Made by a program: the position numbers and the translations under genes. DNA of 64,000 bases, from the NCBI GenBank assembly GCA_964552565.1, contig CAZKGL010000001.1, positions 499,061 to 563,060 of the forward strand. Direction: 5' to 3'. Below are positions 27,584 through 38,783 of the stretch, one piece after another. The notes below the pieces were generated by a model. That model worked only from the letters and a program-made list of their open reading frames with translations, searched no databases and was not told where the DNA came from. Every line of letters begins with the position of its first letter. Positions within the stretch are counted from its first letter, which is position 1. This DNA is from an uncultured Gammaproteobacteria bacterium (GTDB taxonomy: Bacteria; Patescibacteriota; Patescibacteriia; UBA9934).

Positions 27584-29047
27584 CTAGTCGAAGTCGACGG
27601 GACCGGGGTCGGAGACGGCGCTCATGAAGAGGAACGTCGCGCCGCCGAGCGAACCCGTGAGGGACGCTGAGGGCGACGCCGCCGCCCAGTCCTCCATGCC
27701 GTCGCCGTTCATGTCGCCGACCGCCGCGACCGTCTTGCCGCGGAAGTCGTACGCCGCGTCGCCGGCCGTGTAGCCGTACGCGTCGACGCCGAGCTCCATG
27801 CTGCCCGCGATCGGGCCGAGCACGAGGTACGCGTGGCCGGCGTCCACGATGCCGTCGTGGTCCGCGTTCGTGGCACCGACGATGAGGTCGGTCGCGCCGT
27901 CGCCGTCGTGGTCGAGCGTCGCGACGCTGCCGCCGGCGAAGTCCCCCAGCTCCTCCCCGCGGAGCACGGCCAGGGGCTCCGCATCGTCCGCGGCCGTGAG
28001 CGGGGCGCCGATGACGACGACCGCGCCCCTGTCCTCCTCCATGCCGGGAACGCCGACCACGAGGTCGAGCGTCCCGTCGCCATCGACGTCCGTCGCGGCG
28101 AGGCTCGCGCCGAAGCGCTCCGCCGGATGGCTGGCCGCCCAGTCCCTGTCCGCATCGGCGGCGGCGATCTCCCCGGCCCCGCCGGAGAAGACGTACACGG
28201 TGCCGCCGTCCGGATCCTCGGCCGAGACGTTCGGCGAGGACGTGACGATCTCGTCCGTGCCGTCGGCGTCGAGGTCGGCCATGAGGAGCGCGGTGCCCAT
28301 CATGTCGCCCAAGTCCGCGCCGTGGATCGTCGCGACCGGCGCGCCGAGGCCGGTGGCGCTGCCGAGCGTCACCGTGACCGCGCCGCCGTTCGAGAGCGGG
28401 GCGCTTGCCGCGAGGTCGTCGACCCCGTCGGCGTTCACGTCACCGACCGCGACCTTCCAGCCGAACCGGCTGTCGTCGTTGTCGATGGAGATGCGCTGCG
28501 CCCCGGAGAGGAGCACATCGCCCTCCTGCGTGCCGTACAGGATGTACGCGACGCCGCCCATGACGCCGCCGATGTTCGCGTACGGCGCGCCGACCACGAG
28601 GTCGTTGACGCCGTCCGCGTTGACGTCGCCCTGCGCGAGGCTCGAACCCGCGCCGTCGCCGCCCATCTCGCCGTAGATGCGGAGCGTGGACGCCGCGGTG
28701 AGCTCGTTGCCATCCGTGAGCGGGCCGTGCACGAGGTAGGCCATGCCCGCCGGCGCGTCGATGACGGTGTGCGCGGTGTCGTCCGGGTCGTAGCCCGGCG
28801 CACCGACGTACAGGTCACCGTAGCCGTCGGCGTTCACGTCGCCGGCCGCCATGAGCGCGAAGCCGGAGAACCGGTGCGCGTCGCCGACGAGCTGCGCGTC
28901 GCTGTCGAGCGCGATCGGCTCCGCGGCAGCGTCACCGTCCGTGTCGTCCGTCCCCCCACTCCCCCCGTTGTCCTCTTCCCTGTCGCCACCGTCCGGCACG
29001 GGGCGGATGCACCCGGCGATCGACAAGAAGAGCAGCCCCCTCAGCAT
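27584..29047 (-). CDS. FG-GAP repeat (integrin-alpha-like beta-propeller) lipoprotein
   Basis: repeated GDVNADGxxDLxVGAP units; lipoprotein signal from MLRGLLFLSIAGC. Confidence 0.7.
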   Translation of the reverse strand: MLRGLLFLSIAGCIRPVPDGGDREEDNGGSGGTDDTDGDAAAEPIALDSDAQLVGDAHRFSGFALMAAGDVNADGYGDLYVGAPGYDPDDTAHTVIDAPAGMAYLVHGPLTDGNELTAASTLRIYGEMGGDGAGSSLAQGDVNADGVNDLVVGAPYANIGGVMGGVAYILYGTQEGDVLLSGAQRISIDNDDSRFGWKVAVGDVNADGVDDLAASAPLSNGGAVTVTLGSATGLGAPVATIHGADLGDMMGTALLMADLDADGTDEIVTSSPNVSAEDPDGGTVYVFSGGAGEIAAADADRDWAASHPAERFGASLAATDVDGDGTLDLVVGVPGMEEDRGAVVVIGAPLTAADDAEPLAVLRGEELGDFAGGSVATLDHDGDGATDLIVGATNADHDGIVDAGHAYLVLGPIAGSMELGVDAYGYTAGDAAYDFRGKTVAAVGDMNGDGMEDWAAASPSASLTGSLGGATFLFMSAVSDPGPVDFD

Positions 29048-29267
29048 ACAGTCCCCCTTTTCTGAGCCCGAAGCGGACTCATGGCCACCTTGTCCCCGCC
29101 GGGCCAAGTTGTCGAGGCAGACTCCAAAAACATCGCTTGGTTGAGCGATATTCCACGTATGGCCTGTGCATACCTGGGCTTTTCATTTTCTGGCGAACCT
29201 TTTGCGCAGACGACCCGGCACTACGAAGGGTCCGACCCCTTCCGGTGGCCGGGTCCTTCTATTATTT

Positions 29268-29327
29268 GCAACATAACCATCCAGAGGAGCGTAAGCGACG
29301 AAGGATCCCTCGCTTCACTCGGGATGG
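29268..29327. repeat. degenerate short copy of family-B palindromic element
   Basis: AACCATCCAGAGGAGCG...GGATCCCTCGCTTCACTCGGGATGG; directly downstream of TspO stop. Confidence 0.45.
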
Positions 29328-29349
29328 GAACTGCTTCTTGCCACGCAAG

Positions 29350-29745
29350 TTAATTGAGCGCGTACAATGCGCCATTCAGGTATGTGGCGAAACTCACCCA
29401 TACGAAGTACGGTGCAAGGAGCCATGCGGCAAGTTTGTCGACGCGGACAAACGCCATGATAGTGAAAAGGATGGCGAACCATAGCCCGATGATGACGACG
29501 AACGCGATGTCCGGGCGGTGCAAGCCGAAGAAAATGGGCGACCATGCAAGGTTCAGTGTGAGCTGCACCGCAAACATGCCAAGCGCATGGCTGCGTTTCG
29601 CTGTACGTTTCGCAACCCATACTCGCACCGCTGCGACCGCCATCAACGTGTAGAGCACGGCCCACACCGGGCCGAACACCTCACCCGGCGGCGTCAGCGC
29701 AGGTTTTGTCAGCGTGGCATACCACGCAAGTCCTTCCTCCGTCAT
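29350..29745 (-). CDS. tspO: TspO/MBR tryptophan-rich sensory protein
   Basis: 5-TM, Trp-rich, WxPxF-like motifs characteristic of TspO. Confidence 0.75.
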   Translation of the reverse strand: MTEEGLAWYATLTKPALTPPGEVFGPVWAVLYTLMAVAAVRVWVAKRTAKRSHALGMFAVQLTLNLAWSPIFFGLHRPDIAFVVIIGLWFAILFTIMAFVRVDKLAAWLLAPYFVWVSFATYLNGALYALN

Positions 29746-29751
29746 ATGTGA

Positions 29752-30054
29752 TTATGCAATCGCAAGTTCTAACGGCTTCACCTGTCGCTTAATCGCTTTT
29801 CCAGAGGCCTTTTGTTCTACAAGAAGATCGTACCGCGACTGTAAATTGAGCCAAAACTCTGCAGAGGTACCAAAATATTCAGACAACCGGAGCGCGGTAT
29901 CCGCAGTCACTGCACGGTCGCCATGCACGATTTCGTTAATCCTTCGGCGTGGCACGCCAATATCGTTCGCGAGTTTATATTGGGTAATTCCCATCGGCTT
30001 CAAAAACTCCTCTTCCAGAATTTCTCCCGGGTGGATAAACATTGCCTCACTCAT
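29752..30054 (-). CDS. higA: HigA-family XRE-HTH antitoxin
   Basis: HPGEILEEEFLKPMGITQYKLANDIGVPRRRINEIVHGDRAVTADTALRLSEYFGTSAEFWLNLQSRYDL is the canonical HigA signature. Confidence 0.8.
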   Translation of the reverse strand: MSEAMFIHPGEILEEEFLKPMGITQYKLANDIGVPRRRINEIVHGDRAVTADTALRLSEYFGTSAEFWLNLQSRYDLLVEQKASGKAIKRQVKPLELAIA

Positions 30055-30092
30055 ACCAATTTTTTTACTCGTCGCGAATTACTCTAATGATA

Positions 30093-30827
30093 CTACATAT
30101 CAAGCCGGGCGATTTCCTGAGTATACGCACAGAATTCACAATCTTCCGCCGCCTTCGGGATCTTCGATGAACGCAAACACGTGCGCATGGCCATGAGTGC
30201 GCCGTCGACCCACGAGTCGTCGCCTTTGTACTTCAACAACTTCACTTTGAATTCCAGCCTCCCGTCGAATGCCGCGAGATCGGTGCGACCGTTGACGTAG
30301 ACGAAGTATCCAGTGTCCGACACCCTGAATCCGTTCCTGCGGAGCAGCCACTGGTACACCTCCATCTGGCGCTTGTAGCCCATTTGCCATTCGCTATCGA
30401 GGTTTACCTCGCCGTCTTTGCTCGTCGCTTTGTAATCGACGACGATGAGCTCGCCCTTTTTGTTCACCCAGATGTCATCGACCGCGCCGGTCACGAGGAA
30501 CCCGCTCCTCGTGTGCACAAACTGCACGCCCTTAAAATTCTCCCGCCACACGTCCATGAGCTCGTGCGAAAACGGTACGGCGTTCACCTTGTACTCCGCC
30601 ATGAGCGGGTGCGCGGTCTTCGCGACGCGATGCACGTCGAACTCCTTCTTGAGGAGCGCATCAACGGCCTTGTTCAAGTTGAACGGCGGCCCACTCGGCC
30701 TCCCAATCCCCAAGCGCCTATCCAAATAAAAGCACCGCTTACAATCGATGAACAACTCAATCTTCGACCTACTCACCTTGTACGGCGTCTTCGCCTTGGG
30801 GTCGTAGAGATTCCGCGTGCGGGGCAT
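30093..30827 (-). CDS. Cas4/RecB-like PD-(D/E)XK nuclease with 4-Cys (Fe-S) cluster
   Basis: N-terminal CxxC (CKRC), motif III VVDYK, QxxxY (QMEVYQ), C-terminal CEFC; start at MPRTRNLY. Confidence 0.65.
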   Translation of the reverse strand: MPRTRNLYDPKAKTPYKVSRSKIELFIDCKRCFYLDRRLGIGRPSGPPFNLNKAVDALLKKEFDVHRVAKTAHPLMAEYKVNAVPFSHELMDVWRENFKGVQFVHTRSGFLVTGAVDDIWVNKKGELIVVDYKATSKDGEVNLDSEWQMGYKRQMEVYQWLLRRNGFRVSDTGYFVYVNGRTDLAAFDGRLEFKVKLLKYKGDDSWVDGALMAMRTCLRSSKIPKAAEDCEFCAYTQEIARLDM

Positions 30828-30899
30828 ACATTTGGTTAAGCCCAAGATGAAACTCATGCGGGCATGCTGACGAGTCTTAGACCTCCGAGGAACGTCAAA

Positions 30900-31124
30900 T
30901 TATTGATCTAATTGGATCTCCCACCTGTCCTCCTGAGAAAGTTTATATTCGTCCATGATCTCGTTGAGCTTTCGGGCGATCTCGTGACGGCGCATCAGTT
31001 TTTCTGGGTCAATATGGTTGAACACTATAGGCACACCGGGAACCATGTCACGGGCAGACATAGCTGTTTCACGTTTCAGTGTCTTCCATTCTTGGAGAAT
31101 TTGATCAAATTGCTGCTGATCCAT
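30900..31124 (-). CDS. hypothetical 74-aa protein downstream of res
   Basis: 10 nt after res stop; low-G+C codon usage like the island. Confidence 0.4.
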   Translation of the reverse strand: MDQQQFDQILQEWKTLKRETAMSARDMVPGVPIVFNHIDPEKLMRRHEIARKLNEIMDEYKLSQEDRWEIQLDQ

Positions 31125-31133
31125 ATTGGCATG

Positions 31134-33812
31134 CTAGTCATGGTTTACAAAGGCCCTAATACACTCAGCGAAAGTCTTTGGACGAAACTTTTCCCACTCC
31201 TCCTGCTTCACGTATAGCATTTTGTATTCTGTTCCCGCCTTTAGATTGTTTACATCGTCACACCACTGCCGAAGCCGTGCGATCTTCCGCGAATCGTCGA
31301 GATCCTCCCTGCCCTTCGTCTCGATAATATAGACTGTGTCATCTGCCAGCTTCACGAAAAAGTCCGGATAATAATAGGCGATGCTCCCGTCCGCATTCTT
31401 ATAATCGATACGGAATTGGACTTCGTAATAGTTTTTTGCGAATGAAACCACATCCTCACAATCATCGAGAAATTTTCCGAATTCGAGTTCAAGATGGCTA
31501 TCGCCAACAATCTTGTTGAAGACGCTCTTCTTTGGAGTGATGTATTCGTTCTTATCACTAACAAACGGCCGGGCTTGGCTGATCTTGATGTAGTTACGTA
31601 CTTCCGCCTCTCCTTTATCAATAACGGTAAGATCATTGATTGCCTTTTTGAAGGTCTCCTCAATGGTCCTACGCGCTTCAATTTCCGATAGGTTACGGAC
31701 TAGGTTAGAGTCCTCAAGATCGACCGTTTGACCAAAGAGACGGTCGCACACAAAATCTCGTACTAATGGGAACAGCTGATCAAAGCCACTGACCATGCGA
31801 AGTTCACGCATGATGCCCTGCGTGTAGAATCCGATGGCATTTCGCCAGTCGGGCATTACACCTTCTGGAAGCTCAACGATGTGATCAGTTTCCCCGGTTA
31901 CAATTTTCTTGAAGACTATTTCGCGTTGCTCTTGCGCGGTGAATTGCTTGTATTCTACCGGCCTAAACTCTAGATGAGTAACATCAATGTCAGAGATGTT
32001 TTTATATTCTCGAAAAATACGTGGAGACAGGACAGGAAGTTGAATATCGAGCTTCTCAATATCCTTCTTAAGATTTTCATGATCGATCTCAACGATGACC
32101 GGCGCAACGGCGCTTGAATCCCTGTCCATTCGCCGCGTCTGCAGTTCCACACCCTCTGCCTTAATCGACTCAACGAAATCCATGAACGCGGGGGTGCCGA
32201 TAACGCTGACGTATTCCTCAACTCCTCTACCGAAGTACATGAGCCGCAAACCGCGACCAAGCGTTTGCTCAGGAAGGATGTTGCTTTTTGACGCGAACGC
32301 GCGAAGGCCAACGATCGTGGTCACGTTTCGTACGTCCCAGCCCTCTTTCAACATGAGAACCGAAACGACAGCAAGATACGGGCTCTCAAAGCTATCTAGT
32401 TCATTCGATTCCCGACGGAGTTTATCGAGCTCCTCTTTATCCTTATGCTGAATGGTCTCCTTAATTTCGCCAGAGCGATTTGTGTGAATCGTTAATATCT
32501 TCCCTGCGAGTTCTGGGAAGTTTTGCTCGAGGTGCTGAGCGACCGCGTCACAGTTCGTGGTGTCATCAGTCATGACGAAGAGTACCGCTTTTTTTCCAGT
32601 CTTCAGGTGCTGCTCGTATGCTTTACGCCATTCGATAACACCGAGGTGGAGATATTCGCGGTAGCGCTCAATAAAGTTACTACTCTCAACCTCGTTGAGC
32701 TTCGCACGACTCGCCTGGTCCGGAAGAACCGGATGTTTTACGACGTTTTGATGGATCGCCTCAACAAGAGGATAATCGCAGACGGTTTGCACGAAGATCT
32801 CGCCACGCTCATTCTTCGGCGTTGCGGTAACGTCGATCTGCAATGACAACGCACGACCTTTCATCTTCAGGCGGTTTGAGATGTCTTCAATTGATTTAAA
32901 CCATGCGAGCTTCTCGTCGTGAATATGATGCGCCTCATCGTTGAGAACCATGAGCTCATCTACCTCACGCACAATGTCACCGAGATCAACGCCCGAGTTG
33001 GTCGTTTTCGTAACAGGACGGTCTCCCAAAAAATAATCAGTCGTGTTTTCATCCTCAAAAGTCGCCGCCTGGACGTCGCGATCGTACACACGATGAATGT
33101 TCGTCAGGAAGATATTTCCACTCGGAGAGACACCGCTCACTTCGTCCTGCAGGTGCACCGTAACCTGAAAATCATCCTGCCAGTTTTGCCCCTCGTAGCC
33201 ATTATCAGGAAGAATGGGATCGCCAAAGAAAATCTTGCATCCCTCAAAGTCTCCTTTGATGCGATCCAAAACGATGATGTTGGGTGCAATCAACAAAAAG
33301 TTCTTCGACATCAACGAATCCGGTTCGTAAATGCGATGGAAGTAACTCCATGCAATAAGCAGGCTCAACACTTTTGTCTTGCCCGCGCCCGTCGCAAGTT
33401 TCAAAACAAAACGCGGCCAGGCTTCCTTAAACATGCTTCCCGACACACGGCCCGAACTGTCGTACCGCAACAGGTCATGTGGAGCCCGTGCGCCGGCGAC
33501 TTCATAAAGGTAAATCGCTGTCTCTACAGCTTCACGCTGAGCAAAGTAATACCTGAATGTCTTTGCAACGCCATCAACCCAATCGACATGATCTTCAAGA
33601 AACCACCAACGCAGGAGCGCACGAGTCGTCGGACTCGCGCCTTTGTAATCGTTATCGCGCCACTCCTTCACCAACTTTCGCACCTCAGGCACGAGCGGCG
33701 GCATGAGTTTCTCCCACTTCGATTCTCGCAACGCCTCATCAGCCGGAAACCATCGGGTTTTCGGATCGAGGATTGCGTAGGGATCTTTTGGGAAACCAGG
33801 ATGGAGGGCCAT
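31134..33812 (-). CDS. res: type III restriction enzyme Res subunit (SF2 helicase + C-terminal PD-(D/E)XK)
   Basis: motif I LATGAGKTKV, motif II LNDEAHH, C-terminal nuclease PDFFV...YIIETKG. Confidence 0.85.
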   Translation of the reverse strand: MALHPGFPKDPYAILDPKTRWFPADEALRESKWEKLMPPLVPEVRKLVKEWRDNDYKGASPTTRALLRWWFLEDHVDWVDGVAKTFRYYFAQREAVETAIYLYEVAGARAPHDLLRYDSSGRVSGSMFKEAWPRFVLKLATGAGKTKVLSLLIAWSYFHRIYEPDSLMSKNFLLIAPNIIVLDRIKGDFEGCKIFFGDPILPDNGYEGQNWQDDFQVTVHLQDEVSGVSPSGNIFLTNIHRVYDRDVQAATFEDENTTDYFLGDRPVTKTTNSGVDLGDIVREVDELMVLNDEAHHIHDEKLAWFKSIEDISNRLKMKGRALSLQIDVTATPKNERGEIFVQTVCDYPLVEAIHQNVVKHPVLPDQASRAKLNEVESSNFIERYREYLHLGVIEWRKAYEQHLKTGKKAVLFVMTDDTTNCDAVAQHLEQNFPELAGKILTIHTNRSGEIKETIQHKDKEELDKLRRESNELDSFESPYLAVVSVLMLKEGWDVRNVTTIVGLRAFASKSNILPEQTLGRGLRLMYFGRGVEEYVSVIGTPAFMDFVESIKAEGVELQTRRMDRDSSAVAPVIVEIDHENLKKDIEKLDIQLPVLSPRIFREYKNISDIDVTHLEFRPVEYKQFTAQEQREIVFKKIVTGETDHIVELPEGVMPDWRNAIGFYTQGIMRELRMVSGFDQLFPLVRDFVCDRLFGQTVDLEDSNLVRNLSEIEARRTIEETFKKAINDLTVIDKGEAEVRNYIKISQARPFVSDKNEYITPKKSVFNKIVGDSHLELEFGKFLDDCEDVVSFAKNYYEVQFRIDYKNADGSIAYYYPDFFVKLADDTVYIIETKGREDLDDSRKIARLRQWCDDVNNLKAGTEYKMLYVKQEEWEKFRPKTFAECIRAFVNHD

Positions 33813-33814
33813 AG

Positions 33815-34108
33815 CTAGATGTCAAGTAATCTTGTCTGGAGATCATAAATTTCATCTTCCAGCTCTCTTCGTAACTCAGTTATTTCTGATGATTGATTGA
33901 TATGCGCAAACATAACGTCTATAGCAGCCAATCCGACAGTAAAGACGAATGCAACAACAACACCAATGATTATTTGCATGCTCAAATTTTTCTGATCTTT
34001 TAACTCTTCTTTTAGCGTAGCGAATTCTATGTAAAAAACCGATTCTGCTATCGCCTGGTCCAGCGGTACAAACCCCTTCAGTTCATCGTCAATAACGTGT
34101 CGTGGCAT
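33815..34108 (-). CDS. small single-TM coiled-coil protein between mod and res
   Basis: 97 aa; TM IIIGVVVAFVFTVGLAAIDVMFA; start overlaps upstream stop, stop 3 nt before res start. Confidence 0.5.
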   Translation of the reverse strand: MPRHVIDDELKGFVPLDQAIAESVFYIEFATLKEELKDQKNLSMQIIIGVVVAFVFTVGLAAIDVMFAHINQSSEITELRRELEDEIYDLQTRLLDI

Positions 34109-34109
34109 A

Positions 34110-34331
34110 TTAAATCTTCAGAAAGCCCTTAATCTCAACCACGCCACCGTGTTCTTCAGCTGCGATATCTAAGTTTTTATATCGATGAAAATCCACACCA
34201 GCGAACGCGACACCTGGACCAAACGTAAAGCCTGGACCAAATTCGATGCCGCTTACCTTGATCCTGAGTTTCGGAGTCAGGCTGCCGTCTGGCAAAATAT
34301 CAAATACCTCTCTGAAGCTGTATCTTTTCAT
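34110..34331 (-). CDS. small Gly-rich 73-aa protein between mod and res
   Basis: tightly coupled (5-nt gap after mod stop); GIEFGPGFTFGPGVAFAGVDF. Confidence 0.45.
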   Translation of the reverse strand: MKRYSFREVFDILPDGSLTPKLRIKVSGIEFGPGFTFGPGVAFAGVDFHRYKNLDIAAEEHGGVVEIKGFLKI

Positions 34332-34336
34332 AGTTC

Positions 34337-36619
34337 CTAGATCATTATCTCAACAACTCTGGTGGTATCGTTCCCAAAAATGTCGATTACTTTCACTGCG
34401 ACCTTACGCCGACCCGGCACGCACTGTACTGCAACTGATGTTAATTCAAGCTCGCGATCTTTACGAGTGCGGAAAGATTGCCATTCGTTTTCGAAAATAT
34501 ACTGGCCAGTCCATTCTTCGTCATAGTCAACCTTTGTCGCCTGCTCGAGTTCTACGGAGCCGTCAAGCATGATTTGTTTTGCCACCACGTCTTCCGCAGT
34601 GCGTACGATCTCTTTCTTGCTTTCGTAATTGAAGTCGACAGCCCAATAATCGATCCAGTCAGTCCATTTACCCGTCATTATTTCACGTGTGATAATTTCT
34701 GTTTGCTTATCTTTAGTCAACTTAATGAGATTGCCATCCTGCAAAACGATCTTCGATCCCCCACCCTTGATGTTTTCTTCGATTTCCGCGAGATCGTCTT
34801 GGTTGTAAAAAACCTTAAAATTCGCAAGCTCTATAGCGAGCTTATTCTTCTTTACAATCGGATTCACCTCAACGAACGCGAGATCGTAGAATTTCACCTG
34901 TCCGCGCTCAACGGCGCGCTTGTCGAAAACTTCGTTCGGAATCGTTTTAAACTGAAGGTCGATGCCATTGTTTTTTGCGACATCGGCATCCATGCCCATT
35001 TCCCAGCCAAAGCCGAGGACGTCCGCTTTCGTTATACCTTTTTCACGACATTCTGCGATTACCGACTCAACGAGCGAATGCGAGACTGGAAACTCGATCG
35101 GACCAATAGCAACAAGCCGATCGCGCTTCTTTCCAACAAAATTTCTGAAACCGTTTACCGGCTCAGCCTTATATGCTGAGAGAATAAGTGACCTAAAGTC
35201 ATCTTCTTTTTTACGGCGTAGCTGCTCCTTTTCTTCCGCTCGCAAGTCACCATCGACGTTTACAAATTGCTTGCGTTCGTATTTACCAAGGTTGAGAATT
35301 TCAAACGCACGATACGACTGACCCTCTTTCTTCAACTGTCGTTGCACTGCAATCATTCGCTTACGAGATGCGTGAATGCCGAAGCGTCCAAGGTCACTGC
35401 CAATCCATTTACGGTCCAACTTTTCAGAAACAGCTAAAGTCGTCCCTGAGCCGATGAAAAAATCAGCGACAATGTCTCCGTTGTTCGTTGAGGCTTGGAT
35501 AATTCGTTCAAGAAGAGCACTGGGCTTCTGAGTCGGATAGCCAGTATCTTCAACTCCGCGCACCATCGGAATGTCACTCCATAAATTTTGAACGATCATT
35601 CCCGGCCACTCATCCAAGAATTCCTTACGATAAATCAAAGAACCATTTTCTGGAAAATATAGCCTACCCTCCTCATCCCACTTACACATTTTTTCCTTAG
35701 TGACTGCCCATCCGTTTTTTGGTGGCTTCCTTCCTTTGTATTCATACCGTAGCGTCGGTCGTGGTGCCGGATTCGCCATGTTATTAATTCTGTATCGCCG
35801 ACCGCCCTCGTCAATTTTATTAAAAATATCTAACAGCTCATCGGTATTATCACTTTTGTTAAATTGTTCATTGAAAATAAACTGCTCACTTTTGGAATAG
35901 AAAAGTATGGTGTCGGTCTGAGTGCGAAAACTTCCTGCGATGCTAGTTCCACCGGTTCGTCGTTTCCAAATTATCTCCGATTGGAAATTTTCAGAACCGA
36001 ATATTTCATCAAGGATCAACCTCATGTAGGAATTCACTCGCCAATCACAGTGAACATAAATCGAGCCGTTATCGGCAAGTAAATCGTGCATGAGCCTTAA
36101 TCGCTCGTAAATCATCGAAATAAAGCTATCCGCTCCTCTTCCCCACGTATCACGATAGGCTACCTCCTCGATGATGCTCGGTTTTTTTGTAAACTCCTCC
36201 CCACCAATCTCAATGTTCATCGAAAAATCTGCACCGACATCGAATGGTGGATCGATGTAGATCAGCTTAATGCCACCTTGGGCTTCGATTTCCTTCCGCA
36301 AAGGGCCATTCTTGAGTGCAGAGAGAATCAGCTTATTGTCTCCCCAGATAAGTTTATTCGTCCAGCCCTTAGCCTGCCGACCAGAAAGATCAAAAAGATT
36401 CTGCTGCAACTTCACTTCTCGCTCACTGCGGGGCTCGTCGATATGTTCGATTGACTGAAACGGGAGCACGACGTTCATAACCTCGTCGGTCTTGCCGTTC
36501 CAAACCAACTCAACCTGGCGATTATCGCCAAACAGTAAAAACCGATATTTGTCCGGCAAGGGTTTCCCTTGCTCGAGCATCCTCGTGATATCGCGAATTT
36601 CGTTCGGTTGAAGCTGCAT
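34337..36619 (-). CDS. mod: type III R-M Mod subunit (N6-adenine DNA methyltransferase, 760 aa)
   Basis: DPPF motif IV (LIYIDPPFDVG), AdoMet motif I region, large C-terminal extension. Confidence 0.85.
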   Translation of the reverse strand: MQLQPNEIRDITRMLEQGKPLPDKYRFLLFGDNRQVELVWNGKTDEVMNVVLPFQSIEHIDEPRSEREVKLQQNLFDLSGRQAKGWTNKLIWGDNKLILSALKNGPLRKEIEAQGGIKLIYIDPPFDVGADFSMNIEIGGEEFTKKPSIIEEVAYRDTWGRGADSFISMIYERLRLMHDLLADNGSIYVHCDWRVNSYMRLILDEIFGSENFQSEIIWKRRTGGTSIAGSFRTQTDTILFYSKSEQFIFNEQFNKSDNTDELLDIFNKIDEGGRRYRINNMANPAPRPTLRYEYKGRKPPKNGWAVTKEKMCKWDEEGRLYFPENGSLIYRKEFLDEWPGMIVQNLWSDIPMVRGVEDTGYPTQKPSALLERIIQASTNNGDIVADFFIGSGTTLAVSEKLDRKWIGSDLGRFGIHASRKRMIAVQRQLKKEGQSYRAFEILNLGKYERKQFVNVDGDLRAEEKEQLRRKKEDDFRSLILSAYKAEPVNGFRNFVGKKRDRLVAIGPIEFPVSHSLVESVIAECREKGITKADVLGFGWEMGMDADVAKNNGIDLQFKTIPNEVFDKRAVERGQVKFYDLAFVEVNPIVKKNKLAIELANFKVFYNQDDLAEIEENIKGGGSKIVLQDGNLIKLTKDKQTEIITREIMTGKWTDWIDYWAVDFNYESKKEIVRTAEDVVAKQIMLDGSVELEQATKVDYDEEWTGQYIFENEWQSFRTRKDRELELTSVAVQCVPGRRKVAVKVIDIFGNDTTRVVEIMI

Positions 36620-36623
36620 ATAC

Positions 36624-37358
36624 TTATTTCAGGAGATCCCAGGCAACCAAGTAAGAGGTGACGTCGTGTTCCATATTCCCAAGGTACACCTTCCCATCGC
36701 GAATTTTAATGTTTACGCGATAGCGTGTGCCGTTGCTGACAGGAAGTATAGCGCGTTCACGCACCTTTTGCTCAATGACGTGATATGGAAGAACTACGAA
36801 CTTCGTGGCCTCTTCTCCATGCAAAACAAAGACGTAATACACGTTCCCCGAGCCGTGACGATCAAAAGAAACCTTGCGGATATCGAAGACAAAGATGTTA
36901 AACCGATTGATGTTCGACGTCTTCACCTGGATGCCGAACAGCTTGTTGTCCTTGGTCGCGATGATATCTAAGCCAGTATCGACGCTCATGATGCTGGCGT
37001 TATAGCCAAGAAACAAAAGCTCGGCACAAACCGCATGCTCACCAGCCTTACCCGTACAGCCGCTGTCGATCGCAAGTTTTTCAACAATTGCTTTCTCTGC
37101 TGGCGTTTCTGGCGTCTCTTCCACCTTTTCGACCGTCTGGTTGCCACTCAAGTCATACACGCCGGGACCAACACGCTTAAACGCTGAATGCTTTTTCTTT
37201 GCATCAGTGGAAAGCCGCGCACTCATTGTCATTTCTGGCGTCGCTCCGTTCGTCTCCAAGAGGCCCCACTCGAGCGCAAGCTCGGTAATGCGCGCATAGT
37301 GAAGTGGTTCCCCCGCGCGCTTTAGCACTTCGGCTGCTGCCTGCTTAAAGGAGTTCAT
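36624..37358 (-). CDS. HARE-HTH domain fused to PD-(D/E)XK-like nuclease domain
   Basis: N-terminal FKQAAAEVLKRAGEPLHYARITELALEWGL (HARE-HTH), C-terminal E...D(TGLDII)...IQVK; start at MNSFKQ. Confidence 0.55.
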   Translation of the reverse strand: MNSFKQAAAEVLKRAGEPLHYARITELALEWGLLETNGATPEMTMSARLSTDAKKKHSAFKRVGPGVYDLSGNQTVEKVEETPETPAEKAIVEKLAIDSGCTGKAGEHAVCAELLFLGYNASIMSVDTGLDIIATKDNKLFGIQVKTSNINRFNIFVFDIRKVSFDRHGSGNVYYVFVLHGEEATKFVVLPYHVIEQKVRERAILPVSNGTRYRVNIKIRDGKVYLGNMEHDVTSYLVAWDLLK

Positions 37359-37360
37359 AT

Positions 37361-37786
37361 CTACGAGTTGAAGGGCAAGCCCGCACCGTCCTCGAGTTTC
37401 CCATCCCACCCCTCCGCCCTCTTTTGCACGTCCGCAAAACACACTTCGTCGTGCTCACCTTCTTTTTTGTCACACTCCTTTGCATGGTCGCGTTCGGCCA
37501 AGCGTTCGGCAAGGAGCGGCCAGAATTCGTCCTCGGCAACCGCGTGGAGCGCCGCGTCTGCGTCGTCGAAGAACGCGTCGGTCCAATGGTCCTCGTCCTG
37601 CGTATCCGGGGGAAACGTCATGCCGAAGTCTTCCGCGCGATCCATGAGTTGTTCCCACAGCTCCGCAAGCTCTTCGTCGAGCTTGTCGCCGCGCAGCCGC
37701 GCGACGTGTTCGTCAAGCACGATCGCCGCCGCAACTGCGCGCGTGAGAGACAAATAGTGTTTTGTGTGTAGTGTCAAATCAGCCAT
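37361..37786 (-). CDS. highly acidic 141-aa protein (candidate DNA-mimic/regulator)
   Basis: ~27% Asp+Glu, start MADLTLHTKHY; stop abuts start of HARE-HTH nuclease gene; higher G+C than neighbours. Confidence 0.45.
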   Translation of the reverse strand: MADLTLHTKHYLSLTRAVAAAIVLDEHVARLRGDKLDEELAELWEQLMDRAEDFGMTFPPDTQDEDHWTDAFFDDADAALHAVAEDEFWPLLAERLAERDHAKECDKKEGEHDEVCFADVQKRAEGWDGKLEDGAGLPFNS

Positions 37787-38432: not shown

Positions 38433-38783
38433 TTAGAGCTCCGTATATTTCTTGTGGTTGCCGTAGGACTTGTCGACGGGATACTTCAGTGCGGCCTTCT
38501 CGAGCTTTGCCGGCAACGCGGTCGCAAGGTCGATGTCGAGGTCATGCGCAAGGAGCAGCACCCAGTACAACACGTCCGCGAGTTCGTCCGCGACGTCTTC
38601 TTTGTGTGTCGCAAGATACTGGGCGAGTTCGTCACCATTCTTCCACTGGAAGTGCTCGAGGAACTCACTCGCCTCGAGGTTCAGCGAGATGGCGCAGTCT
38701 TTGGGGTTGTGGAACTGCTTCCAGTTGCGCGCCTCGCGGAAATCGATGAGGCGTTGCGTCAGCTCGTGGATGATGTCGCTCAT
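38433..38783 (-). CDS. MazG-like nucleotide pyrophosphohydrolase
   Basis: EASEFLEHF...ELADVLYWVLLLAHDL EExxE/ExxD motifs. Confidence 0.7.
   Translation of the reverse strand: MSDIIHELTQRLIDFREARNWKQFHNPKDCAISLNLEASEFLEHFQWKNGDELAQYLATHKEDVADELADVLYWVLLLAHDLDIDLATALPAKLEKAALKYPVDKSYGNHKKYTEL

Follow-up and report, generated by a model that had tools for sequence, protein, structure and literature searches.

Small accessory and backup modules are known from restriction-modification (R-M) operons. The PrrC/EcoprrI and rlo genes of type I loci are extra genes located between hsd genes, and supply abortive infection as a fallback once restriction has been blocked. RonA is a 61-aa protein with a single transmembrane (TM) segment, linked to hsdMS, that functions as a cell-death effector triggered by anti-restriction proteins (bioRxiv 10.1101/2023.04.06.535777). 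In the Ronin system of E. coli ECOR55 (hsdS-hsdM-ronA), which has a decoy/abortive mode of action, RonA toxicity is suppressed by the R-M partner and triggered by Ocr or ArdA; R-M and cell death are likewise coupled in PrrC and in the type III system EcoR22I (bioRxiv 10.1101/2023.04.06.535777).

The locus described here has the same Mod (N6_N4_Mtase) and Res (ResIII helicase/endonuclease) domains, in the same orientation, as EcoP15I-like mod-res systems. However, in canonical type III systems mod is followed directly by res, whereas here a two-gene cassette lies between them and the operon has additional nuclease genes on its flanks. The locus is part of a window of 64,000 nucleotides, which is the whole stretch of DNA that we analysed. 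We found that the two small genes, referred to as S73 and TM97, do not belong to the type III enzyme, and instead form a self-contained two-gene cassette. While small modules in R-M operons have precedents, this one is new in its protein family, its build from two proteins, its fold without a match and its indifference to R-M type, and a literature search for the signature motifs and family of S73 and TM97 found nothing relevant.

Results

The host type III operon and its genomic island

The genes on either side of the cassette (Table 1) encode both components of a type III system, namely a Mod protein with an N6/N4 methyltransferase domain, and a Res protein with an SF2 helicase followed by a C-terminal TnsA/RE_endonuc-like PD-(D/E)XK-type endonuclease domain (PF08722 and PF19778, residues 761–847). 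Res also gave a partial match to the NCBIfam BPTD_3080-family restriction endonuclease. The genes are ordered mod, S73 (the 73-aa ORF), TM97 (the 97-aa ORF) and res on the minus strand, with 5 nt between the mod stop codon and the S73 ATG, 1 nt between the S73 stop codon and the TM97 ATG, and 2 nt between the TM97 stop codon and the res ATG. This order and these gaps had been given in the first-pass annotation, and proved exact when compared with the ORF list and the raw sequence. The same annotation held that all four genes must be co-translated; the spacing does support a single transcript and translational coupling, but "must" is too strong a word. Patescibacterial genomes are compact, and tight spacing alone is therefore no evidence of functional linkage.

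Table 1. Coordinates of the operon, the embedded cassette and adjacent genes within the window.
Feature	Position	Strand	Basis and remarks
HARE-HTH + PD-(D/E)XK nuclease-like gene	36624-37442	-	PF05066 E=1e-14; PF11645 E=9e-5; 4 nt upstream of mod
Type III mod (760 aa)	34337-36619	-	N6_N4_Mtase PF01555 E=3e-42; PADLOC MTase_III E=4e-113
S73 (73 aa, soluble, all-beta; cassette gene 1)	34110-34331	-	ORF, homologues, AlphaFold2 model
Direct repeat of 18 nt in S73	34204-34239		Glycine-rich core
TM97 (97 aa, bitopic membrane protein; cassette gene 2)	33815-34108	-	N-terminal helix, TM at residues ~44-66, C-terminal helix
Type III res (892 aa)	31134-33812	-	PF04851 (ResIII) E=3e-12; PADLOC REase_III E=2e-22
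74-aa ORF	30900-31124	-	Begins 9 nt past res; same operon; also called in sister contig L113
Cas4-like PD-(D/E)XK nuclease (254 aa)	30093-30857	-	PF12705 E=2e-13; PADLOC Cas4 models E~2e-8

Judged from the sequence, the operon extends beyond these four genes. The HARE-HTH/PD-(D/E)XK gene is probably the first gene of the mod-res operon, and its true start is likely an internal Met near residue 28. At the other end, the 74-aa ORF past res had no family match in Pfam, NCBIfam or PHROGs. The Cas4-like nuclease has a 59%-identical homologue located directly after the S-TM pair of another locus (L028:8652-9419; BLASTP E=2e-116), and in the window an XRE-type HTH gene and a TspO gene lie downstream of it on the same strand.

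The GC content of the island that holds these genes (~29.3–37.5 kb of the window) is 45–50%, compared to 60–73% in both flanks, and a low-GC island in high-GC flanks fits horizontal acquisition. A scan for promoters and terminators revealed no such sites at the gene junctions, with scores not above those of shuffled sequences, and a search for target-site duplications and terminal inverted repeats flanking the cassette revealed only short, chance-level repeats. An Rfam search gave no match in or near the region, and there were no tRNA genes within 20–45 kb. Patchy distribution, diversity of genomic context and GC content are the three features suggesting that the cassette may be mobile.

Insertion of the cassette between mod and res

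A tblastn search of Res against plasmids identified two full-length orthologues, on Aminobacter pANY103c and Sinorhizobium medicae pSMED02, with 60–61% identity for Res and 53–54% for Mod. On both plasmids mod abuts res, with no S73 or TM97 match between the two genes. The S73-TM97 pair is an insertion relative to these orthologous mod-res pairs, which agrees with the first-pass description of two ORFs inserted into an otherwise canonical type III system. Presence in these two orthologous type III systems, as would be expected of a subunit, was not observed for either protein. One other locus (L005, the closest relative), with a Res that is 77% identical, has the order mod-S-TM-res found in the window, and is the only one to do so. 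The first-pass annotation had asked whether homologous mod-res pairs elsewhere carry the same inserts; L005 does, and pANY103c and pSMED02 do not.

The two ORFs as genuine, co-inherited genes

In the comparison between the window and L005, synonymous sites were saturated (pS 0.83–0.84), and pN was 0.175 for S73 and 0.30 for TM97, similar to the values for Res (0.156) and the Mod C-terminus (0.25). Values of pN far below the saturated pS, together with conservation of the pair in more than 100 loci, indicate that the ORFs are more than chance open frames; S73 and TM97 are genuine genes under purifying selection. The loci were sampled by S73-derived patterns only (26 from genomes and 80 from metagenomes), with further loci obtained by exact look-up.

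Among 107 assessable loci, the S73 homologue was directly followed by a single-TM protein of 73–162 aa in 105, and the 78 full-length partners had a median length of 115 aa. These partners share a build in which one strongly hydrophobic segment lies between charged helical regions. The gap between S and its partner ranged from -20 to +11 nt in 104 of the 105 pairs, with a single exception at +66 nt. Mean pairwise identity was 56% among the S73 homologues and 24% among the partners. The two identity matrices were correlated (r=0.65, Mantel p=0.001), and this correlation indicates that the two genes are inherited together.

S73 protein

In the first-pass annotation the 73-aa protein was described as glycine-rich and the 97-aa protein as having a single TM segment, and both descriptions are accurate, with 10 glycines among the 73 residues of S73 and one hydrophobic segment in TM97 (Table 1). 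The glycine-rich core of S73 consists of a tandem six-residue FGPGxx/FGPGVx repeat, which corresponds to a direct repeat in the DNA, and the signature of the protein is DGSLTPK...GxxFGPGVxFGPGVxFxGVDF...DIAAEE...IKGF. Ten database homologues were found, with 50–77% identity and 22 invariant columns. When an S73 profile was compared with 1.84 billion representatives, the number of clusters matched was 490 for a threshold of E<=1e-3 and 141 for one of E<=1e-10. At 50% identity the family has ~490 clusters, for the most part from Patescibacteria.

The AlphaFold2 model of S73, built from the 10-sequence alignment, is all-beta with a pLDDT of 92.6. No fold match to it was found, the best Foldseek/PDB hit having an E value of 0.81 and the best BFVD hit an E value of 0.99. 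S73 has no signal peptide, lipobox or hydrophobic N-terminus. Neither S73 nor TM97 gave a significant match in Pfam, NCBIfam, PADLOC or PHROGs, and no PADLOC-DB v2 family was matched by either at E<=1. Sub-threshold matches to the families Chal_sti_synt_C, LapA_dom, CCDC90 and EbrB were dismissed as noise. The best PDB sequence-profile match, to the C-terminal strands of the PARP1 catalytic domain, was non-significant (E=0.1), and 73 aa is too small for an ART fold. Multi-repeat matches to proteins of 620 and 1460 aa proved to be Big_9/cadherin-like adhesins, with a resemblance at the level of a motif (DGS..TP..GF.G.D.F.Y) and no homology.

TM97 protein

AlphaFold2 modelled TM97 as one continuous helix over residues 16–96, with a pLDDT of 71 and the highest confidence over the TM segment; the coiled coil proposed for this protein in the first-pass annotation is plausible. 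TM97 is 50% identical to its counterpart in L005. Because the partner family diverges fast, a search with the single TM97 sequence returned no homologue besides TM97 itself, and a profile of 71 sequences found 11 proteins. The family is too divergent for word-seeded search, so synteny was used to find the partners.

Among the 78 full-length partners, the mean number of Lys and Arg residues was 2.99 in the 15 residues before the TM segment versus 2.03 in those after it; the excess of these residues was on the N side in 51 partners and on the C side in 13, with 14 tied. Some partner subfamilies have a conserved Cys...Cys-Phe C-terminal tail. The charge bias and the Cys tails weakly suggest an N-in/C-out topology for TM97.

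Exported forms and distribution of the S domain

Most of the best 150 representatives of the S73 family (116) are 90 aa or shorter. Approximately 14 of these 150 have a signal peptide or lipobox followed by a Pro/Ala-rich linker and then the S domain, and such exported or lipoprotein forms occur as single genes without a TM partner. One of them (L117) has a Kiwa system on one side and a Vsr/HEPN/GmrSD/C5-MTase cluster on the other. Another (L115) is carried as cargo by a Tn7-like element, where it adjoins a 1066-aa N6_Mtase gene that weakly matches MmeI/Eco57I MTases. The association of the S domain with defence islands therefore reaches beyond the two-gene form. The S domain may act at the membrane in either case, through a lipid anchor or, presumably, through its partner protein.

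The 26 genome loci comprise 17 from Patescibacteria/CPR lineages, three from Bacteroidota, three from Gammaproteobacteria and three that are unclassified. Two divergent copies (L011 and L030) occur in one gammaproteobacterial MAG. No S73 relatives were found in the viral IMG/VR, phage INPHARED or plasmid PLSDB collections.

Genomic neighbourhood of the cassette

Examination of the gene neighbourhoods, by per-gene Pfam scans and from existing annotations, revealed that the pair is located between R-M subunit genes in at least four independent architectures, and beside R-M genes in many other arrangements. It lies between hsdM and hsdS (L006), between hsdS and hsdR (L033), in front of hsdR (L057), behind hsdS (L071) and behind an HsdM/S fusion gene (L090). 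It follows genes for a CfrBI-type REase (L035) and a Dam-like MTase (L037, L040), and precedes those for DpnI (L015), the type IV enzyme Mrr (L045), a type ISP enzyme of 1337 aa (L067) and an N6_N4 MTase (L023, L076). An Eco57I-like MTase gene and the Cas4-like nuclease gene enclose the pair in L028, and RadC and type III mod-res genes enclose it in L002 and L018. Further arrangements are DndB - pair - Abi_2 (L001) and the pair followed by a MazG-like gene and a Schlafen/NERD helicase gene (L009). The pair also has housekeeping neighbours, including G6PD, GlpX, ArgG, a class I Trp/Tyr-type tRNA synthetase, PheT, FtsH/RecG, ATP synthase/RsmI and, at one locus, DprA.

Pfam families were counted among the 133 immediate neighbours at 80 non-redundant loci. 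Scored locus by locus, R-M or DNA-modification genes made up at least 22 of these neighbours and occurred at 19 of the 80 unique loci; about three quarters of the unique loci had no R-M gene as an immediate neighbour. The neighbours contained 131 different Pfam families, of which ResIII, RadC and Eco57I (five each) were the commonest, along with N6_Mtase, N6_N4_Mtase and Methylase_S (four each), HSDR_N_2 (three) and D12 MTase (two). PADLOC recognised five type I specificity subunits among the neighbours. The control set consisted of 133 ORFs from these contigs, each separated from the cassette by more than 4.5 kb. Among the top 25 of the 125 families in this control, no R-M family had two or more members; these top 25 included one C5 MTase, and single R-M matches are possible beyond them. 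Other defence genes were present among the control ORFs, namely ThsB-TIR, AbiEii-like and SocA/Panacea genes. The association of the pair with R-M genes is thus local, strong, non-obligate and independent of R-M type.

Discussion

A proposed membrane-acting cassette co-expressed with R-M

On the basis of genomic context, we predict that the S73-TM97 pair is a membrane-acting phage-exclusion or abortive-infection cassette that is co-expressed with R-M systems. We advance this reading tentatively, at a probability of roughly 0.45; it takes up one option raised in the first-pass annotation, that of a sensor or abortive-infection effector. The cassette, lodged between mod and res, would be expressed from the R-M operon transcript, and its embedding in R-M operons would result in co-expression and co-transfer with first-line restriction. 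TM97 is the candidate effector, and may oligomerise via its flanking helices and perturb the membrane or DNA entry, presumably in the N-in/C-out orientation. S73 would be a cytosolic partner that interacts with TM97 and serves as its sensor or restrainer. Antiphage activity of this kind could also serve as a fallback after restriction has failed, which is the part that PrrC and RonA play in type I systems. The exported forms, which make up ~10% of the best representatives, place the S domain outside the cytoplasm, and are awkward for a cytosolic sensor. A more ambitious version of the proposal, which we regard as improbable, is that the pair is a generic guard independent of R-M type, a membrane suicide or exclusion switch with a novel small beta fold, widespread in Patescibacteria, that would fire whenever restriction is bypassed or inhibited.

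Alternative explanations

It is conceivable that the pair has a non-defence role in the envelope or in housekeeping, for example in membrane stress, division or DNA-uptake scaffolding, and that the cassette merely shares variable regions with R-M genes. Most neighbours are indeed non-defence genes, as the diversity of Pfam families among them illustrates; RadC (five loci) and DprA (one locus) are among them, and Patescibacteria, in which the pair is common, have a lifestyle that relies on envelope and DNA-uptake functions. However, R-M families are the most frequent neighbour families and are missing from the distant-ORF control (among its top 25 of 125 families), and the pair has come to lie between R-M subunit genes repeatedly. 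A patchy distribution, and a location in a low-GC island of a high-GC genome, would also be unexpected for a core function. We consider an envelope or housekeeping role unlikely.

The exported forms and the topology of the partners bear on a second alternative, in which the cassette would act at the surface in the manner of superinfection exclusion, with the C-terminal helix of TM97 facing outward and S at the envelope, blocking adsorption or DNA injection without killing the cell. The signal-peptide and lipobox forms of S among the best 150 representatives are consistent with such a role, as are the charge bias and the Cys...Cys-Phe tails, which suggest that the C-terminus is out. Relatives of TM97 also gave weak PHROG matches (E=6e-4 and 0.02, and up to 0.09) to Rz-like i-spanins, a bitopic class whose coiled coils lie in the periplasm, but these matches are absent for TM97 of the window and are probably compositional. 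Furthermore, S73 has no hydrophobic N-terminus, and an export route for the short forms is thus not evident. Entry blocking at the surface appears to us an improbable explanation.

We judge it slightly less probable again that the pair is an addiction module resembling toxin-antitoxin (TA) systems, in which TM97 would be the toxin and S73 the antidote, or the reverse, with post-segregational killing that stabilises the island and no antiphage role. Like type II TA modules, the cassette consists of two small co-directional genes that are tightly coupled or overlapping; its distribution is patchy and independent of context, one MAG holds two divergent copies, and the cassette tends to accompany mobile and defence DNA, a setting rich in TA modules. 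On the other hand, neither protein matched a TA family in Pfam or NCBIfam, neither has a DNA-binding domain through which it could autoregulate, as type II TA systems typically do, many loci have no space for a promoter of the cassette's own, and lipoprotein forms of S exist as single genes without a partner.

The proposal of the first-pass annotation that the inserted proteins serve the type III system itself, by tethering Mod2Res complexes to the membrane or gating Res activity, had in its favour the position between mod and res with gaps of 1–5 nt, repeated in L005, but is highly improbable, as the pair is absent from the orthologous type III systems on the two plasmids and occurs with type I, II, IIG/ISP and IV genes, with non-R-M defence genes and with housekeeping genes where there is no R-M system, and the independence of the association from R-M type rules out a type III-specific tether or regulator.

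Implications

The immune repertoire of Patescibacteria is poorly known. A role in defence or backup would make the cassette a compact two-protein system dissimilar to any catalogued one. Restriction with an embedded suicide effector, a logic known so far from PrrC, Ronin and EcoR22I in E. coli, would then reach across all R-M types and into the candidate phyla radiation. Were the cassette instead an addiction or envelope module, it would still constitute a family of ~490 clusters that Pfam, NCBIfam, PADLOC and PHROGs do not contain, and whose confident fold prediction has no match. The repeated and precise insertion of the cassette between R-M subunit genes offers a clean example of operon hitch-hiking. 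It also provides a warning for annotation, in that a mod and a res gene split by small ORFs are still a canonical type III system carrying a passenger.

Comparison with known systems

The two-component Rz/Rz1 spanins of phages resemble the cassette in combining a bitopic protein with long extramembrane helices and a very small partner, and some S-domain homologues are Pro-rich lipoproteins. However, no copy was found in phages or lysis cassettes in the viral and phage collections searched, gene order and embedding differ, and the proteins lack spanin characteristics, since the TM segment of TM97 is central and not N-terminal, and S73 has no lipobox. Patescibacteria, to which most hosts of the cassette belong, are not known to have an outer membrane.

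As with PrrC and the rlo genes, the cassette can be located between hsdM and hsdS and between hsdS and hsdR. PrrC is an ABC-ATPase/anticodon nuclease of ~400 aa, whereas the cassette contains no such domain and its putative effector is membrane-based. The closest functional analogy is to Ronin, with which the cassette shares a very small single-TM protein in an R-M-type operon, a likeness of build and context. TM97 is like RonA in this respect, but does not share its obligate linkage to hsdS-hsdM: RonA is a single gene that always occurs with hsdS/hsdM, whereas the cassette comprises two genes that occur with all R-M types or with none, and its conserved member is the soluble beta-protein. By analogy, the cassette may resemble PrrC, RonA and EcoR22I in logic, while differing from them in gene number and R-M specificity and probably in sequence.

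Companion genes and genomic setting of the cassette

A Cas4-like PD-(D/E)XK nuclease recurs alongside the cassette, the gene pair formed by a homologue of S73 (the 73-aa all-beta protein encoded between the type III mod and res) and a single-TM partner directly downstream. The nuclease encoded in the window is 59% identical to the product of L028:8652-9419, a gene located directly 3' of the cassette on a Patescibacteria contig. The MazG-like gene of the window is 55% identical to one found immediately 3' of the cassette at a second locus (L009:8559-8906), and another MazG-like homologue (L018:4824-5174) lies two genes upstream of a cassette.

Examination of base composition revealed that the type III operon and its cassette occupy a low-GC island (45–50%, vs a background of 60–73%), together with TspO, an XRE-type HTH gene, the Cas4-like gene and the HARE-HTH nuclease gene. 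Neither a tRNA nor a flanking repeat was found at the island edges. The very GC-rich ORF just outside the island encodes repeated 'GDVNADG.DDL' motifs, which we read by eye as putatively FG-GAP/VCBS-like.

Features of the window in and around the island
Feature	Position	Strand	Location
507-aa ORF, GC ~73%	27584-29107	-	just outside island
Low-GC island	~29300-37500		
Cas4-like PD-(D/E)XK nuclease gene	30093-30857	-	downstream of res
74-aa ORF	30900-31124	-	9 nt past res
18-nt tandem direct repeat	34204-34239	-	within S73 gene
HARE-HTH + PD-(D/E)XK/Mrr-like nuclease domain fusion	36624-37442	-	stops 4 nt ahead of mod
MazG-like gene	38433-38783	-	~1 kb upstream of type III operon

Sequence features and variants of the S73 family

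The duplicated FGPGxx/FGPGVx motif of S73 is the product of an 18-nt tandem direct repeat, the copies of which are 78% identical. This repeat encodes both copies of the motif, and the Gly-rich core of S73 is therefore an internal six-residue duplication.

The S73-family domain also occurs in single-gene secreted or lipoprotein forms, which carry Pro/Ala-rich linkers (representatives P0063, P0066, P0131, P0140, P0111, P0146 and P0102; loci L114-L118). Two single-gene forms were located in defence or mobile-element settings, one in a Kiwa-adjacent island and the other as Tn7-like cargo. Two further representatives, P0149 and P0121, end in Cys-rich tails (CxxH...CxxC; CxxxCxxC) resembling small zinc ribbons, and it is possible that such a tail is an alternative partner domain in place of the TM protein.

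Two divergent copies of the cassette (L011 and L030) were present in the gammaproteobacterial MAG CAZXIF01. The partner in one of them is of the Patescibacteria-subfamily type, with an ...NPNLK tail similar to those of the NPYLK type in Patescibacteria partners. Horizontal transfer or contamination of the bin could explain this likeness and the divergence of the copies.

Ends of the type III operon

The 74-aa ORF that follows res had zero matches across family libraries, and is likewise among the ORFs called on the sister contig L113. The HARE-HTH/PD-(D/E)XK fusion is an additional nuclease-like gene heading the operon. In the cassette-free orthologous mod-res pairs on the plasmids Aminobacter pANY103c and Sinorhizobium pSMED02, mod is preceded by an AAA ATPase gene, without a HARE-HTH nuclease gene, whereas in the window the HARE-HTH nuclease gene takes that position.
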